From: a virus
DNA: 40,109 bases
Strand: one strand, 5' to 3'
UHGV virus genome: UHGV-0115014
Positions 5,882 through 33,199 of this stretch are shown here, in pieces (the stretch's first letter is position 1; each line of letters starts with the position of its first letter). The notes below the pieces were generated by a model. That model was not told the origin of the DNA, ran no database searches, and saw only the letters and a list, made by a program, of their open reading frames with translations. Position numbers and translations under genes: made by a program.

Positions 5882-6466
5882 TTATTGTTTGTTTTTTTCG
5901 TTCTGGTTGATGACAAATTCAATGTAACTTTCGATCTTTGCTTTCTCGGTTTCTGGTAACAAAGCGTAGCGCGAGCGGTCATAGTTGATAGTCGCAGGGT
6001 CGTGCGGGTGAATCAGTAATTCATAGCCGTGACGCCCGAATGCGGATGCAACATTCTCCAGGGTGGAAATGGAAACGCTGACCTCATTGTTTAACAGGCG
6101 GCTGATTGTCACCTGGGCGACGCCGGATGCGCGGTGAAGTTTTCCCTGCGTTGAAAGGTCGCGGCTTTCGCTCATCCAGCGTTCCAGGTTGTGAGCCGCC
6201 AGTTGACCAATGTCGCTTGGTCCGACAGGCTGAAAACCTTCCTGAGAAAGCGAGCGATCGATATCAAGCCAGTTACGGGGTTTATTGGCGGCAGCTTCAA
6301 TTTTTCGCGCAACCTGGTCGCCGATAACCTTCTTGCCAAGAGCCCAGCGGTTTACCAGATTTGCCTGAGTTCCAAGTTTTTCAGCCATCCGCGTCTGAAC
6401 ACCATTGAATTCACGGTCGATCAAGTCGTTGAGATTTTGCCTGCGGACGTCCTGGATACTTTTCAT
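5882..6466 (-). CDS. Phage repressor-like protein with two HTH (XRE/Cro-C1-type) domains, no S24 peptidase domain
   Basis: 194 aa; two helix-turn-helix blocks (GVQTRMAEKLGTQANLVNRWALGKK and ASGVAQVTISRLLNNEVSVSISTLENVASAF); divergent from Cro-like gene; followed by intrinsic terminator. Confidence 0.7.
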   Translation of the reverse strand: MKSIQDVRRQNLNDLIDREFNGVQTRMAEKLGTQANLVNRWALGKKVIGDQVARKIEAAANKPRNWLDIDRSLSQEGFQPVGPSDIGQLAAHNLERWMSESRDLSTQGKLHRASGVAQVTISRLLNNEVSVSISTLENVASAFGRHGYELLIHPHDPATINYDRSRYALLPETEKAKIESYIEFVINQNEKNKQ

Positions 6467-8843: not shown

Positions 8844-8929
8844 CCTCGACAATTACCTGTTAGGTAATAAAATATTCTAAAATCTATTGATTTCGTGTCT
8901 TATGTGGTTTTTAATTACCTCAGAGGTAA
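8844..8929. promoter_or_regulatory. Pair of TTACC-N5-GGTAA palindromes upstream of DUF1064-like gene
   Basis: TTACCTGTTAGGTAA (about 8844-8858) and TTACCTCAGAGGTAA (about 8915-8929, abutting ATG 8933) with TTGATT and TATGTGGTT between them. Confidence 0.45.
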
Positions 8930-12801: not shown

Positions 12802-12878
12802 TGGCGTGGCATGCAGGATTCGAACCTGCGACCAACCGCTTAGAAGGCGGTTGCTCTGTCCAACTGAGCTAATGCCAC
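12802..12878 (-). tRNA. tRNA-Arg (anticodon UCU), phage-encoded
   Basis: 77-nt cloverleaf read on minus strand: acceptor stem GTGGCAT/ATGCCAC, D-arm GCTC...GAGC, anticodon stem ACCGC/GCGGT with loop CTTCTAA (anticodon TCT), T-arm GCAGG-TTCGAAT-CCTGC, discriminator G and encoded CCA. Confidence 0.85.
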
Positions 12879-13200: not shown

Positions 13201-13215
13201 TTACCTGAAAGGTAA
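13201..13215. promoter_or_regulatory. TTACC-N5-GGTAA palindrome upstream of head gene block
   Basis: TTACCTGAAAGGTAA followed by AT-rich promoter-like sequence and ATGTGGTT (13260-13267), about 95 bp before ATG 13306. Confidence 0.4.
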
Positions 13216-29278: not shown

Positions 29279-29307
29279 GGAAGTGTTGTGTTTTTAATTA
29301 TTTTGAG

Positions 29308-29463
29308 TGTGATAATTTCTGGTGGATTGTTATTTATTGACCGCTACAAATATTTTCTTAACCCTCAGACTCAAGCTATTTGCTGGTTCATCTTTGTTGT
29401 GCAGGGAGTAGTTCTTGTTGCAAGCCTTATTGAGGGGAGGCCTCTGATTTTTAATGGGTAAAT
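29308..29463 (+). CDS. Small hydrophobic protein (51 aa)
   Basis: Unlisted small ORF with GTG start; one TM-like segment AICWFIFVVQGVVLVASLI. Confidence 0.2.
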
Positions 29464-29473
29464 AGGTGACTAC

Positions 29474-29770
29474 ATGCAAGCTATAGGATTCATTGTTTAT
29501 ATCGTCGTTGGTCTTTTTCAGTTGGCAGCAATTATGGCTGGGCTTGAATCATGGTGGGGGTTGCACTGGGTAATTGCAGCTCCCGTTGCTTTTGTCGTGA
29601 GTTATATTCCGTTTGTTGGAGCGATTGTTGGTATGATTGGCGCTGTGGATGTATGGCGGTGGGAGTGGTGGCAGGCTGGCCTTCTCTTCTTTGGTGGGAT
29701 CATCTTTGCTATTGTCTGCGGTGGAATGTCATCATTTTTCGAACGGCTATCATTCAGAAAAGGAACGTGA
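29474..29770 (+). CDS. Small integral membrane protein (about 3 TM segments)
   Basis: 98 aa, strongly hydrophobic; stop codon lies inside a GTGACATGTCAC palindrome. Confidence 0.5.
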   Translation: MQAIGFIVYIVVGLFQLAAIMAGLESWWGLHWVIAAPVAFVVSYIPFVGAIVGMIGAVDVWRWEWWQAGLLFFGGIIFAIVCGGMSSFFERLSFRKGT

Positions 29771-29778
29771 CATGTCAC
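29767..29778. repeat. 12-bp perfect palindrome GTGACATGTCAC (copy 3)
   Basis: Exact palindrome containing stop of membrane protein gene 29474..29770 and ATG of plus-strand ORF 29772..29915. Confidence 0.6.
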
Positions 29779-29801
29779 AGGCCGCTTTCGCGGCCTTGTT
29801 T

Positions 29802-29963
29802 TTAACGAATGCCACCGCCACCCGGGCGGGAATCCGCAGAACGCCCACCGCAGCGGGAGCCGTCAGCGGCAGTATCGCTGTCGTGCTGACAACGACCGGC
29901 AAAGGCCTGAGTTGAAGCTACCAGAGACAACAAAACGAACAGTGCAGCAAATGCTTTTTTCAT
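29802..29963 (-). CDS. Small secreted peptide (signal peptide plus 31-aa Cys-containing mature part)
   Basis: MKKAFAALFVLLSLVASTQAFA signal peptide with AxA cleavage motif; TTGACG-N16-TATAGA promoter-like sequence upstream on minus strand; antisense-overlaps alternative plus-strand ORF 29772..29915, so strand assignment is uncertain. Confidence 0.35.
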   Translation of the reverse strand: MKKAFAALFVLLSLVASTQAFAGRCQHDSDTAADGSRCGGRSADSRPGGGGIR

Positions 29964-30032
29964 TGTGAAATTTCCATCTATAATCCACCTCAATGTGGCG
30001 TCAATGAGTGTAGCACTGACTTTTGTTTCGTC

Positions 30033-30057
30033 CACAAAAAAGCCCGCGGCGCGGGCT
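30033..30057 (-). terminator. Intrinsic terminator after YafO-like gene
   Basis: Minus-strand GCCCGCG-CCG-CGGGC hairpin followed by TTTTTTGTGG; overlaps stop codon. Confidence 0.6.
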
Positions 30058-30602
30058 TATTCCTTCCATTTATCAGAAAAAAGATCTTCTTCTAAAGGCA
30101 TTGGTTCTGTTTTTGTTTTCTCAAAGAATTGATAACTGATAGTGATTGCTGCCTCTTTAAACTCTTCTTGCTCAGTTATGTTGTGGGCATCTGCGTCAAC
30201 AAAAAACATAACCAGCGCATCACGATTGTGATTTACCGAATAAACTAAAAAGCAATTACTTGTTGGTATGCATTTTACTTGCACAGACGCTATTTTTTTC
30301 CATGCATCCCAAGATGATTTTTTACCAGTGTGTTTTTTATCACTATCTTCTGGAATATAGTCTTGGTTATCGACATGAGTATGCCTGACATTTAGTTTAA
30401 GCATTTCTGTCGGACGAGCAAATGCAGCATCTTTACCAAGAGATGGATGGTATCCCGTTTTCCAATACTGGGTAAAGGCATCAGATACTTTCTTCAGCTC
30501 AAGATCAGATGCACAAAGGGCCGAGAAATTTTGCGTATGCAATACTCGACCCTTATATCTGACAATTTGATTTTTATCATTCTGCGACGCAGACGAACTC
30601 AT
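30057..30602 (-). CDS. YafO-family toxin-like protein
   Basis: Table ORF 30057..30629 with start at MSSSAS; region DAFTQYWKTGYHPSLGKDAAFARPTEMLKLNVRHTHV and FLVYSVNHNRDALVMFFVD aligns with E. coli YafO blocks ADFISYKRDGVLPDIFGRDALY...LIKFERVAHIHL and HLVYCQGAFDEQAWLLIAIL (recalled from memory); intrinsic terminator at 3' end. Confidence 0.45.
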   Translation of the reverse strand: MSSSASQNDKNQIVRYKGRVLHTQNFSALCASDLELKKVSDAFTQYWKTGYHPSLGKDAAFARPTEMLKLNVRHTHVDNQDYIPEDSDKKHTGKKSSWDAWKKIASVQVKCIPTSNCFLVYSVNHNRDALVMFFVDADAHNITEQEEFKEAAITISYQFFEKTKTEPMPLEEDLFSDKWKE

Positions 30603-30756
30603 AATTTTCCTTATTGTTACGAGAATCAAAGAAAGCGCGGGATACGCGACTTGCGTGATCTTTTGTCATAGTAACTTTTACGCACTCTACGCTTCCATTG
30701 AAAGAACGTCTTGCGGCAGCTTGCGCTCTACGCATCTGCAATTTTTCGTTTCGCAT
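30577..30756 (-). CDS. Small basic ORF upstream of YafO-like gene (candidate antitoxin or leader peptide)
   Basis: Unlisted 59-aa ORF MRNEKLQMRRAQAAARRSF...; overlaps start of YafO-like gene in another frame; speculative. Confidence 0.2.
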   Translation of the reverse strand: MRNEKLQMRRAQAAARRSFNGSVECVKVTMTKDHASRVSRAFFDSRNNKENYEFVCVAE

Positions 30757-30816
30757 GACATTACCTCATATCTCATAAGTTCATTACACGGATTAATAAA
30801 AATGAAACCAATCCGT

Positions 30817-30831
30817 TTACCCTTGAGGTAA
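30817..30831. promoter_or_regulatory. TTACC-N5-GGTAA palindrome upstream of YafO-like cassette
   Basis: TTACCCTTGAGGTAA about 60 bp upstream (minus strand) of small ORF start 30756. Confidence 0.4.
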
Positions 30832-30903
30832 TAGTACGCTATTCACCCACAGTCTGCAATCTGTACAGAATTATTTAAAGGCACATCCCTGTGCCGCCGC
30901 CCG

Positions 30904-31599
30904 TCAGAAGAACCCTGCCTTGTCGTTGATGTACTCCGCGTGCGTCTGGATATCACGCAGGCATTTGCTCACACCGACGATGTAACAGAACATGGTGGTC
31001 AGCTCCGCCGCCGCGCCCGATACGTCGTGCCCGTCGTCCTGTAACTGGTTCAGCAGATTCATCAGCAGTGAGTTCTCCGTCAGGCCGAGAACACCAGACG
31101 GAGAATGAATCAGGCTGCGGTAGCCGGGCTTCAGCGGGGCACTGTAGGTTTTGTTCTCTATCTTCATTGCCTGCATTACTGCTGACGCCGTGGCGTTGGC
31201 TACCTGGTCGGCAACCATCTTTATGCGTTCTTCCTGCGGTAGCGAGTTTTTAATGTAACTTCCGGTGCGGCGGATCTGAGGAAGAACCTCACCTGTAACC
31301 CATTTACGAAAGCGGTAGGGGATAGTGCCTGGTGTCACCGCATCGCGGCAGCGGAGGATCAGTGTGTAGAGGCCTGACTCGGAGATGATGATCGATTCTT
31401 GCTCACCGCCAGGGGTGTCGGTTGAAGCGACGCCCTTCTCATCATCATCAAGTTTTCGAACAGCATCTCGATGGTTTGCTATGCCTATAGCCCGACAAAC
31501 ATCTGAAGCGATAAACCATGGCTCACCATTAATGACGATTACTCGTATATCGGCTTGGGATTCGAAAGAAAAAATGGACGTGCTTTTTGTAGCTGTCAT
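30904..31599 (-). CDS. Bro-N domain protein (antirepressor-like)
   Basis: 231 aa; N-terminal block VIVINGEPWFIASDVCRAIGIANHRDAVRKL is a Bro-N/antirepressor-type signature; C-terminal 70 aa are paralogous to ORF 32747..33004. Confidence 0.7.
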   Translation of the reverse strand: MTATKSTSIFSFESQADIRVIVINGEPWFIASDVCRAIGIANHRDAVRKLDDDEKGVASTDTPGGEQESIIISESGLYTLILRCRDAVTPGTIPYRFRKWVTGEVLPQIRRTGSYIKNSLPQEERIKMVADQVANATASAVMQAMKIENKTYSAPLKPGYRSLIHSPSGVLGLTENSLLMNLLNQLQDDGHDVSGAAAELTTMFCYIVGVSKCLRDIQTHAEYINDKAGFF

Positions 31600-31868
31600 A
31601 GTGGTTACCTTTTAGTCAGGTTAATCACCACTACCGACGCCAATCGGTTGGTGGTGAACTGTGCAGGGTTGGCGTAACCGGCTAAAAGGACCCGGCGCAC
31701 CTTTCGGTGCCCCCACACAGCCCACCATAATACGAATGTGGCCGTGCTATACGCATAAAAAAACCGCTTGCGCGGTGAATGCGCCTTTTAGTAATCCGGG
31801 ACGCCAATCCCGGCACTGGATTTTGCCAGTGCCCGATTACTATGGCACAAGAGGAGTGCAATGTAAAT

Positions 31869-31976
31869 TTACCGCAAAGGTAATGATAAACGCGGAGAAA
31901 TATTAAAATCAACCGCATTTGGTTGATTGCGTTTAACGCTTGATCACCTGAAAGCAAGATATTACCTTTAAGGTAA
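31869..31976. promoter_or_regulatory. Pair of TTACC-N5-GGTAA palindromes upstream of zinc-ribbon membrane protein gene
   Basis: TTACCGCAAAGGTAA (about 31869-31883) and TTACCTTTAAGGTAA (about 31962-31976), the latter 20 bp before ATG 31997. Confidence 0.45.
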
Positions 31977-31996
31977 TGTTATTGTGAGGAAAAGCA

Positions 31997-32725
31997 ATGG
32001 AAGTTTTCTGGATAGTTGTTGGTGTTGTTACGGTGATTATTTACGTTATCAACCAGAACAGGACTAAGGTCTCTGATCGCACAGTCGTTAATCATCGCAA
32101 AACGATAAAGACCGAAGATGGAGAAATAACGATTAATCGTACACAGGTGATAGACCACACCTCCACTCAGTTTCAAAAAACTGGAGGTAATGCGCCTAAT
32201 ATTTCCGCACCTCCTGCTTATGATAGTGCGGTAATCCAGACATATTATAAACAGCAGGAGTTAGCAAAAGAGAGGCAACTGATTCAGCCAAAGCCATTTA
32301 CAGCAGAGCTTCCACCTGGAGTGTCAACGCGTCCGGCATATCATGGAAGATTCCCTGGTGATGACATATCGTCTCAGTCATCTAAAAAAGCACCTCAGGC
32401 AGTATCAGAGCCAGCAAGAATACCTTCTGTATCGCCGCCAAAAGAAGAATCAGCTAACAGAGTTTCAAGTGGTAGCAAGCAGTGCTTGCGATGCAGAATA
32501 AACCTTCCATATGAAAAATTCAGGAAATCGTCAAAAAATCCAGATGGATTGACTAAGTGGTGTGCAAGGTGTCTCGATGGTCCAAAGAATACACGCCATA
32601 TGAAGTGGTGCCCAATTTGTAATGTCCGCAGAAAACGAACCAGCTTTTACCCTAATAATCAAAATGCGGATGGCTTAATGGCATGGTGCAAAACGTGCTG
32701 GGACGAGCACAAAGCGAAACGATAG
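31997..32725 (+). CDS. Membrane-anchored protein with two C-terminal zinc-ribbon repeats
   Basis: N-terminal TM helix VFWIVVGVVTVIIYVI, Pro/Ser-rich linker, then duplicated modules CLRC...DGLTKWCARC and CPIC...DGLMAWCKTC; several in-frame AGA/AGG codons; followed by intrinsic terminator. Confidence 0.55.
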   Translation: MEVFWIVVGVVTVIIYVINQNRTKVSDRTVVNHRKTIKTEDGEITINRTQVIDHTSTQFQKTGGNAPNISAPPAYDSAVIQTYYKQQELAKERQLIQPKPFTAELPPGVSTRPAYHGRFPGDDISSQSSKKAPQAVSEPARIPSVSPPKEESANRVSSGSKQCLRCRINLPYEKFRKSSKNPDGLTKWCARCLDGPKNTRHMKWCPICNVRRKRTSFYPNNQNADGLMAWCKTCWDEHKAKR

Positions 32726-32748
32726 GCCGCTCTAGCGGCCTTTTCTTT
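32724..32748 (+). terminator. Intrinsic terminator after zinc-ribbon membrane protein gene
   Basis: GGCCGC-TCTA-GCGGCC hairpin followed by TTTTCTTT. Confidence 0.6.
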
Positions 32749-33004
32749 ATGTGGTTTGTTTTCGTAATTGTTCGGCACAATAGTCGAGATGTGTTTGCAA
32801 ATCCTGCATAGACATCTGTGAGCTGGTGACGTAGTTAATCAGTGCAGTCAGTTCGGCAAGTGGGCCATCGACATTAAATCCATCCTTATCGAGATCCCGG
32901 AGTAATTTCATCAAGTGCGATCCCTCCACCAGTGACCTGACGCCTCCCGGCGTGTGAATCCTTTCGGTAAATCCGTCTTCCAGTGGATAGTGATACTGCT
33001 GCAT
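32747..33004 (-). CDS. Small protein homologous to the C-terminal domain of the Bro-N protein
   Basis: Table ORF 32747..33022 with ATG start at MQQYHY after GGAGAAG SD; about 40-45 percent identity over 70 aa with the C-terminus of 30904..31599 (LMKLLRDLDKDGFNVDGPLAELTALINYV...DLQTHLDY versus LMNLLNQLQDDGHDVSGAAAELTTMFCYI...DIQTHAEY). Confidence 0.55.
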   Translation of the reverse strand: MQQYHYPLEDGFTERIHTPGGVRSLVEGSHLMKLLRDLDKDGFNVDGPLAELTALINYVTSSQMSMQDLQTHLDYCAEQLRKQTT

Positions 33005-33080
33005 CTTATCTTCTCCATGCAATAACTGTATATTTATACAGTATCAAATAATTTGTTTGCTATCCAGCACGTTTTGCAAA

Positions 33081-33095
33081 TTACCCGAAAGGTAA
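33081..33095. promoter_or_regulatory. TTACC-N5-GGTAA palindrome upstream of tail fiber gene
   Basis: TTACCCGAAAGGTAA about 105 bp before ATG 33200, followed by ATGTGGTT at 33128-33135. Confidence 0.4.
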
Positions 33096-33199
33096 TATCT
33101 GTTCATATTCACAGTCTTTCTATCCATATGTGGTTTTTCAGGTAATAGAATAACCAGATATGCGGCGCAACGGGTGCTGCGACTATCTGGAGATTTAAC

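Follow-up and report, generated by a model that had tools for sequence, protein, structure and literature searches.

A probable anti-immunity region with two antirepressor circuits and exchangeable cassettes in an epsilon15-like prophage of Escherichia coli

The gene block at positions 29279-33199 of the UHGV virus genome UHGV-0115014 (hereafter the island; the window is the whole 40,109-nucleotide stretch that was analysed) has its closest described counterparts among the immunity and antirepressor systems of temperate phages. In Salmonella phage SPC32H, the repressor Rep reportedly remains uncleaved during the SOS response and is said to be dismantled by the antirepressor Ant, the promoter of which is reportedly overlapped by a LexA box. 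Phages P1 and P7 possess the immI locus (c4, icd and ant), which in P1 has the promoters P51a and P51b and the operator Op51; the Rfam families of such RNAs are C4 (RF01695), c4-a1b1 (RF03163) and IsrK (RF01394). In P22, the immI/sieA region (sieA, mnt, arc, ant and sar) has the ejection genes on one side and the tailspike gene on the other (gene 16 and gene 9, respectively). Secondary descriptions of the SPC32H Rep/Ant system are available (PMC9638917, PMC9986798), one of them stating that tetrameric Rep binds palindromic sites (PMC9638917). Further counterparts are the isrK-orf45-anrP locus of Gifsy-1 (Hershko-Shalev et al. 2016; PMC4825925) and the APSE phages of Hamiltonella, in which a'/b' matches upstream of a Bro-N gene have already been reported (PMC7313666).

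The window is an epsilon15-like (Uetakevirus) prophage of Escherichia coli. A 100% identical copy of the island occupies positions 1368722-1372642 of E. coli NZ_LS992166.1. Among phages with a name, TL-2011b (96.8% identity across 74% of a 4.9-kb query), phiV10, ZX5, phiv142-3 and HEMP4 come closest. On its left lies the gene for an 824-amino-acid internal virion protein (end, 29278), the counterpart of the phiV10p20 'virion structural protein', and on its right the tailspike open reading frame (ORF; start, 33200). A first-pass annotation, made from the sequence, had described this 3.9-kb block between the internal proteins and the tailspike, and both its boundaries and all eight of its ORFs hold as listed. 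It had interpreted the block as an accessory island, inserted within the virion structural module, and as a candidate locus for novel defence, anti-defence or lysogenic conversion. The evidence presented here points to another reading, which we consider quite probable, in which these genes form the anti-immunity region of an epsilon15-like prophage, with two antirepressor circuits and a set of exchangeable cassettes. For the most part the island is ordinary and not a new defence system, and its circuits are of known kinds.

An antirepressor gene behind a LexA box

The 85-amino-acid ORF nearest the tailspike gene matches the crystallised Ant of the SPC32H Rep-Ant pair (PDB 5D4Z, 5D50) with high identity over residues 2-85, and a repressor with two helix-turn-helix (HTH) domains, encoded outside the island, matches the crystallised Rep over its full length (Table 1). 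The start codon of ant is the ATG at 33004, as in the phiV10 annotation, and a LexA box lies 22 nt upstream of it. A LexA box likewise adjoins ant in SPC32H, where ant occupies the same position beside the tailspike gene. The homologous components of SPC32H-type antirepression, an Ant, a two-domain Rep and a LexA box, are all present in the window and, based on these matches, the gene at 32747-33004 is an SPC32H-type Ant and the predicted lytic switch of the phage, with Rep as its predicted target. Rep has no match to peptidase S24 and matches HTH-type regulator families only (PHROGs, NCBIfam), i.e., it lacks a LexA-like cleavage domain. The gene had previously been described as a standalone paralogue of the C-terminus of the island's Bro-N protein; the likeness is genuine (42% identity to Bro-N residues 150-223), but its identity as an SPC32H-type Ant behind a LexA box had been missed.

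The arms of the LexA box are invariant in all ten named relatives, comprising phages of E. coli, Enterobacter and Salmonella, and in these ten the spacing from the box to a TTACC-N5-GGTAA site is fixed as well. A further 85 loci were collected, 80 from a viral collection and five from a genome collection, encoding an Ant 71-100% (mostly 99-100%) identical to that of the window; the scan of the genome collection used Ant as a single-sequence pattern, which reaches close relatives only. The box was present in 82 of 83 further loci and always 54-55 nt from a TTACC-N5-GGTAA site. As judged from this conservation, the invariant element of the slot is ant under a LexA box. By analogy to SPC32H, host LexA bound to the box by the ant start would keep ant off and, upon DNA damage, cleavage of LexA would allow Ant to be made and Rep to be pulled off its operators. 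The phage of the window differs from this system in the addition of a larger second antirepressor with an Ant-like C-terminal domain, a gene that is absent from SPN1S and, we presume, from its close relative SPC32H.

A second LexA-like box (CTGT-N8-ACAG, 33099-33114), which gave the impression of lying on a rightward tailspike promoter, was rejected as a chance occurrence, being conserved in none of nine relatives. In relatives from Serratia and Cedecea (loci L107, ~2160-2190, and L110, ~1520-1545), the left half of the box that precedes ant is degenerate, reading ATGG or ATGT in place of CTGT, and a Providencia relative (L020, 4491-4640) has neither a clear LexA box nor the TTACC palindrome. 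The control of ant may differ in the more distant members.

A predicted second antirepressor with an IsrK/C4 RNA leader

The second largest unit of the island is a circuit of the P1 immI type, centred on the gene for the Bro-N protein. The first-pass annotation had called this protein Bro-N antirepressor-like, which is borne out by the score of the Bro-N domain (76.7 bits against a Pfam cutoff of 25.6) and by a match of the protein to PHROG 130 'anti-repressor Ant' (2e-62). Its C-terminal domain, which shares the identity to the 85-residue Ant noted above, also matches the crystallised Ant (E = 1.9e-13). The same Ant-like domain occurs without this Bro-N N-terminal domain in 13 loci, and other E. 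coli genomes have the slot's antirepressor gene annotated as Ant, AntA/AntB or ORF6N and not as Bro-N. It is thus the C-terminal domain that seems to be conserved and, presumably, to bind Rep. From these sequence relationships we infer that the Bro-N protein functions as an antirepressor.

Two RNAs, IsrK and C4, are encoded in the ~400 bp that separate the zinc-ribbon gene from the Bro-N start (31599); both, along with the LexA box, had been overlooked in the first-pass annotation. The match to the C4 model (Rfam covariance model) is full length, and the IsrK/C4 leader folds with a z-score of -5.25. The b' loop of C4, CCUUUUAG, is complementary to CUAAAAGG, which is present both in IsrK (b1) and in the Bro-N leader (b2), and the a' element, ACGCCAA, is complementary to UUGGCGU, again present in IsrK (a1) and in the leader (a2). 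The a and b elements are perfect matches of 7 nt and 8 nt, respectively, at all three places, and b2 overlies the Shine-Dalgarno sequence (AAGG) that is situated 8 nt ahead of the Bro-N ATG. In 15 modules, a'/a1/a2 and b'/b1/b2 co-vary three-way, with four a-classes and at least nine b-classes, and b2 ends 8-16 nt before the start codon; the RNA pairing of this circuit is shown by the covariation. Both RNAs occur in all six named relatives with a Bro-N gene and in none of the three without it, and 68 of 69 loci of the larger set combine C4 and IsrK with the Ant-like C-terminal domain. The IsrK-C4 pair also precedes antirepressor genes in Stx, Klebsiella, Hafnia and APSE phages. The 3' end of C4 carries CACCACCA, a sequence compatible with processing by RNase P.

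Based on this arrangement, a single transcript would run from IsrK through C4 to the Bro-N protein and its Ant-like C-terminal domain. The single-stranded elements of C4 would pair with a2 and b2 such that, when C4 is abundant, the second antirepressor is left untranslated, and IsrK, with its identical a1 and b1 sites, could act as a decoy. Of the tandem promoters, P2 (TTTACA-17-TGcCATAGT) has a predicted start that coincides with the 5' end of IsrK, while the -10 element of P1 is fused to a TTACC-N5-GGTAA palindrome, as at PL, a candidate counterpart of Op51.

By sequence, then, the Bro-N unit is an RNA-controlled antirepressor circuit of the P1 immI type. It shares with P1/P7 immI a C4 RNA with a' and b' elements, upstream a1/b1 and downstream a2/b2 sites, a b2 site over a ribosome-binding site, an antirepressor gene downstream, and a tandem promoter arrangement, in which one of the promoters here carries a putative operator of the prophage repressor. 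The two differ in that no icd-like ORF was found between C4 and the antirepressor gene of the window, where the gap from C4 to the Bro-N ATG is just 47 nt, so that b2 sits on the antirepressor's own ribosome-binding site; in addition, P1 Ant is unrelated to the fusion of Bro-N and Ant-like domains encoded here. In Gifsy-1, IsrK with its own terminator likewise precedes an antirepressor gene on a read-through transcript, but the locus of the window lacks orf45, has C4 between IsrK and the antirepressor gene and has no identified AntQ gene adjoining it. The APSE phages share the gene order IsrK, C4, Bro-N, but belong to another phage family, carry the genes at another genomic position and have no LexA-controlled Ant beside them. 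The closest functional data concern ORF4 of ZX5, which has the same length and slot position as the Bro-N protein and lies within a region aligned at 97.1% DNA identity. Its overexpression lowered the prophage titre ~1000-fold and repressor transcripts by 75% (PMC9782041).

The Pfam family PF10554 (Phage_ASH, 'Ash protein family') matches conceptual translations of the IsrK/C4 region (loci L013, 988-1671; L016, 825-1661; L003, 1779-1892). In L013, the Phage_ASH domain (residues 68-161, ~nt 1189-1471) extends over both IsrK (1201-1275) and C4 (1299-1385), and 'Ash family protein' annotations at such places may be translations of a conserved RNA locus and not real proteins.

A palindrome at early and island promoters

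The island contains exact TTACC-N5-GGTAA sites at 30817, 31869, 31962 and 33081, the four that the first-pass annotation had counted among its features, but the motif is not specific to the island. There are 10 exact sites and six with one mismatch in the window, 16 in all against 0.73 expected. Two sites (5748 and 5810) lie on one flank of rep and two more (6522 and 6570) on the opposite flank. Further sites follow cro, precede a DUF1064 gene (8853 and 8915) and the portal gene, fall in the start of terS and occur close to the lysis genes. The positions of the motif are conserved in phiV10 and the Salmonella phage SPN1S, including pairs exactly 62 bp apart. At PL (TTGACA-17-AATTAT), the site starts at the last base of the -10 hexamer, while at PR and at a promoter at 8846 it falls within the spacer. 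Fusion of the -10 hexamer to the site recurs at two island promoters (30859-30817 and 31912-31869) and in relatives. The density of exact sites is 0.9 per kb across the 36 of the 85 loci with both flanks matched, the set to which all slot statistics refer. As the geometry at PL, PR and 8846 is that of a repressor site and published statements have tetrameric Rep binding palindromes, the motif is most likely the operator of Rep, and probably of Cro, and is treated here as a putative operator. The presence of the palindrome at PL, PR, a third early promoter and three island promoters leads us to infer that the island promoters are gated by it. The conserved 62-bp pairs in E. coli and Salmonella phages suggest looping by a tetrameric repressor.

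It is improbable, though the positions of some sites would suit it, that the palindrome is instead bound by Cro or by an activator of middle or late genes, through which the island genes would be switched on. Sites also occur by the start of terS, ahead of the portal gene and close to the lysis genes, and the one at ant has its centre ~45-60 nt ahead of the likely start, a position typical of an activator. Set against this, the motif covers the -10/+1 region or the spacer at PL, PR, 8846 and three island promoters, which is the geometry of a repressor; sites cluster on both sides of rep; and the reported binding of palindromes by tetrameric Rep (PMC9638917) fits the conserved pairs 62 bp apart.

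With the palindrome as a putative Rep operator, the cassette of a YafO-like protein and its 59-residue partner, the Bro-N unit and the zinc-ribbon gene would constitute a derepression regulon that is silent in the lysogen. Leaving ant aside, three of the four transcription units are driven from promoters that the palindrome overlaps, which argues for repression in the lysogen, and the favoured interpretation is that the cassettes are expressed on derepression and not in the lysogen.

Table 1. Coordinates of the features discussed, in the numbering of the window (aa, amino acids; strand given as + or -, or. for sites without orientation)
Feature	Position	Strand	Remarks
Rep	5882-6466	-	194-aa two-HTH repressor, outside the island; PDB 5D50_A, E 4e-42, full length
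TTACC-N5-GGTAA sites outside the island	5748, 5810, 6522, 6570, 6907, 8853, 8915, 10041, 10059, 13201, 33313, 36431		
57-aa protein, two hydrophobic segments	29288-29461	+	Continues late operon; positional equivalent of phiV10p21
98-aa protein, three hydrophobic segments	29474-29770	+	PHROG 3075, function unknown; weak holin-like Pfam match below cutoff
Terminator-like hairpin ending late-operon segment	29779-29796	+	
53-aa signal-peptide protein, 2 Cys	29802-29963	-	PHROG 14503 'membrane associated protein', moron category
Terminator after YafO-like gene	30040-30058	-	
YafO-family-like protein, 181 aa	30057-30602	-	Predicted RelE/HigB-type toxin fold
59-aa partner ORF, candidate antitoxin	30577-30756	-	26-nt overlap with toxin-like gene; PHROG 6685
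Cassette promoter and putative operator	30817-30859	-	TTGCAG 30859-30854, 17-nt spacer, TACTAT 30836-30831; operator 30831-30817
Bro-N protein, predicted antirepressor, 231 aa	30904-31599	-	Bro-N domain residues 17-107, Ant-like C-terminal domain 150-226
C4 target sites in Bro-N leader	31608-31643	-	a2 TTGGCGT 31643-31637; b2 CTAAAAGG 31615-31608
C4 antisense RNA	31647-31732	-	Rfam RF01695, 77.7 bits against gathering score 45; b' loop 31689-31682, a' 31675-31669
IsrK-type RNA, terminator-ended	31757-31832	-	Rfam RF01394, 77.9 bits against gathering score 50; a1 31807-31801, b1 31791-31784
Tandem promoters of IsrK-C4-BroN transcript	31839-31912	-	P1 TTGATT-18-TATCAT 31912-31883, fused putative operator 31883-31869; P2 31867-31839
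TTACC-N5-GGTAA site	31962-31976	.	21 nt upstream of zinc-ribbon gene, 93 bp from operator 31869
Zinc-ribbon protein, 242 aa	31997-32725	+	N-terminal membrane anchor, low-complexity linker, two CxxC-x22-CxxC ribbons; PHROG 6762
Terminator-like hairpin, zinc-ribbon gene to ant	32724-32741	+	
ant	32747-33004	-	85-aa SPC32H-type antirepressor, by homology; PDB 5D50_E, E 1.3e-47, residues 2-85; PHROG 450
LexA (SOS) box CTGTATATTTATACAG	33026-33041	.	20-mer 33024-33043 matches E. coli consensus at 18/20
TTACC-N5-GGTAA site	33081-33095	.	Fixed 54-55 nt from LexA box

The slot in relatives and its exchangeable cassettes

The premise of an insertion, that ejection-protein genes are normally followed directly by the tail fibre gene, fails for the epsilon15-like family, as genes are present in the slot of all ten relatives examined. 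The minimal slot, in SPN1S, PAS61 and 65FD, is ~0.65 kb and consists of a ~46-residue membrane protein and one small leftward gene, and the larger slots of phiV10, ZX5, phiv142-3, EC.W1-9 and Tyrion add a Bro-N gene and other cassettes. The 36 complete slots span 645-5634 bp and fall into at least 25 layouts of content and size, and at least 80% of the island occurs in 11 of 5426 complete E. coli genomes, with some part of it in ~1000. The slot is thus a true recombination hotspot, as the first-pass annotation had proposed.

By analogy of gene order, the slot is the positional counterpart of the P22 immI/sieA region, lying likewise between the ejection-protein and tailspike genes and likewise resembling a secondary immunity region with an RNA-controlled antirepressor. 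The window differs in having none of the P22 immI proteins and no sar RNA (Rfam), and thus does not belong to the mnt/arc/ant/sar type. In TL-2011b, the equivalent slot is 5.9 kb and includes P22-type arc, ant and sar. The TL-2011b slot (L001, 1780-2964 and 1951-2018) holds three antirepressor systems in one place, P22-type Arc/Ant with sar RNA (Rfam, 44.8 bits), IsrK-C4-BroN and LexA-controlled Ant.

In relatives, the cassette promoter and its putative operator are conserved, but immediately beyond the operator the sequence gives way to one of at least eight unrelated cassettes, so that the operator also marks a recombination boundary. Recombination at this promoter-operator junction would swap the downstream cassettes between prophages. 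Many of the alternative cassettes consist of a small ORF followed by a larger one, the layout of the cassette in the window. Two of the ten alternative cassette proteins examined carry DUF2335 or DUF4760.

The larger protein of the window's cassette had been named a YafO-like toxin homologue. Its modelled structure has a RelE/HigB fold, but its Pfam score (23.2-23.4 bits) is below the gathering score of 25; all 23 homologues match Pfam YafO_toxin at E<0.01. With E. coli yafN-yafO and the RelE/HigB mRNA endonuclease toxins the cassette shares this weak, family-wide match, the predicted fold and a small overlapping upstream partner. It differs in a Pfam score short of the cutoff, a protein ~50 residues longer, a partner that lacks any recognisable antitoxin domain and a promoter that bears a phage operator in place of obvious autoregulation. 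Among homologous loci, a 59-residue upstream ORF was called in one of two Serratia contigs and a 63-residue one in a siphovirus tail module; the Cedecea locus and the second Serratia contig had no partner gene called. The cassette of small ORF and YafO-like gene is itself mobile, occurring also inside the tail module of an unrelated siphovirus-like contig (L109, 3817-4537). A YafO-like motif, recognised by eye in a protein with no Pfam match, is also found at a second, plus-strand position of the slot, where it replaces the zinc-ribbon gene (L051, L058).

The zinc-ribbon protein has hypothetical homologues only, all in Enterobacterales, one of them in the same slot of a Providencia prophage; endonuclease VII, HNH and Lar-like proteins have zinc ribbons similar to its own. 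For both the YafO-like and the zinc-ribbon protein, PDB sequence searches gave chance-level matches only, and the island ORFs had no match in NCBIfam. Descriptions of the island proteins as membrane, secreted or ribbon proteins agree with hydropathy and cysteine patterns (the proteins of 57, 98 and 53 residues, the last with two Cys, and the two CxxC-x22-CxxC ribbons). The 57-residue protein had no match among PHROGs, Pfam or PADLOC. The 53-residue gene has a promoter of its own (TTGACG-16-TATAGA, read by eye) with no TTACC operator upstream and is, on these features, the best candidate for expression in the lysogen.

If the island were a moron or defence hotspot, its genes would be expressed from the prophage and would protect or convert the host, be it by abortive infection through the YafO-like protein or by superinfection exclusion through the membrane and zinc-ribbon proteins. 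Along with the 53-residue peptide, which falls in the moron category of PHROGs and has its own operator-free promoter, the hotspot behaviour of the slot, the many alternative cassettes with a two-gene layout, the RelE/HigB toxin fold of the YafO-like protein and the presence of sieA in the P22 slot all fit such a role. We nevertheless regard it as unlikely. A search of PADLOC-DB 2.0 (E<=0.01) gave no match for the eight island ORFs or the ten alternative cassette proteins; the promoters of the toxin-like cassette, the Bro-N unit and the zinc-ribbon gene are overlapped by the palindrome of PL and PR, which predicts silence in the lysogen; and the invariant gene of the slot appears to be an induction switch and not an accessory. 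The hotspot itself stands, as does a content that is in part moron-like and of no assignable function. The evidence does not support an inserted accessory locus concerned chiefly with novel defence, anti-defence or lysogenic conversion, the invariant element being the predicted lytic switch of the phage.

The operator-gated promoters and the exchange of cassettes under one conserved promoter are also compatible with the variable cassettes being early-expressed counter-defence or host-takeover genes, turned on together with the Rep regulon when the phage infects or is induced. The RelE-fold nuclease might, for example, shut off translation, and the zinc-ribbon protein might alleviate restriction; the second ribbon of the latter resembles a PHROG of Lar-like restriction alleviation proteins (2.8e-09) as well as endonuclease VII/HNH ribbons, and the same zinc-ribbon gene also occupies this slot in Providencia. 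The Lar resemblance, however, is confined to the ~40-residue zinc ribbon, and a toxin encoded with a small overlapping partner is more suggestive of a toxin-antitoxin pair than of a factor for shut-off, which leaves this a possible but doubtful account of the cassettes.

Returning to the anti-immunity region, a combined model can be put forward tentatively, in which two antirepressors with a shared Rep-binding domain would be read out by LexA and by RNA titration, respectively, and operator-gated payload cassettes would be fired on derepression. If the palindrome is indeed the Rep operator, the cassettes would represent a diversifying payload, either induction-coupled or composed of early counter-defence and host-takeover genes, and this class of payload would differ from classical morons, which are expressed in the lysogen.

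Several points weigh against the region being an anti-immunity region of this kind. Five of the eight ORFs remain without an assigned function, the ZX5 overexpression data are indirect, and the YafO-like protein combines a Pfam score below the cutoff with a structural model of medium confidence (pLDDT 72). The operator assignment draws on position and geometry only, and Cro or another factor could bind the palindrome. The palindrome at ant does not cover the likely promoter but is located upstream of it, and P2 could give constitutive transcription of the Bro-N unit.

For a widespread family of E. coli prophages, represented by some part of the island in ~1000 of 5426 complete genomes, these assignments correct the annotation. 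A 'hypothetical' 85-residue gene becomes the predicted SOS-controlled lytic switch, a 400-bp gap becomes two regulatory RNAs and the Bro-N protein becomes a putative second antirepressor, the translation of which is predicted to be blocked by C4. The TTACC palindrome would tie the island to the central repressor network of the phage, while the conserved promoter-operator junction marks a site for harvesting uncharacterised cassettes and also predicts the timing of their expression.

In composition, the island is AT-richer than its surroundings, as had been noted (45.4% GC against 49.2% for the rest of the window), but this places it no lower than the 5th percentile of 3.9-kb windows. GC content is heterogeneous, from 36.8 to 57.4% per gene, and the neighbouring tailspike is equally AT-rich (46.2%). 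The three intrinsic terminators described previously are present as hairpins (29779-29796 (+), 30058-30040 (-) and 32724-32741 (+)) and are joined by a fourth terminator-like hairpin (31776-31763 (-)); 14 terminator-like sites occur in the region against 4.3 expected. Consensus promoter matches are not enriched (eight found, 7.6 expected). The best consensus match in the island (29957-29984 (+), TTTTCA-16-TATAAT, 10/12) is directed rightward, antisense to the 5' end of the 53-residue gene and toward the bidirectional hairpin at 30040-30058, and a short antisense or intergenic transcript could arise from it.

Outside the island, a tRNA-Arg gene (anticodon TCT; 12802-12878 (-)) is located in the gap between the terminase and portal genes, adjoining the TTACC-N5-GGTAA site at 13201. 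In the 5' region of the tailspike (33140-33182), the invariant sequence CAGGTAATAGAAT combines an operator half-site with a -10-like TAGAAT. The hairpin GCGGCGCAACGGGTGCTGC follows this sequence, and the Salmonella version, ATGCGCGCCGGGCGCAT, preserves the stem with different bases. This stretch may represent a separate tailspike promoter with a leader structure.

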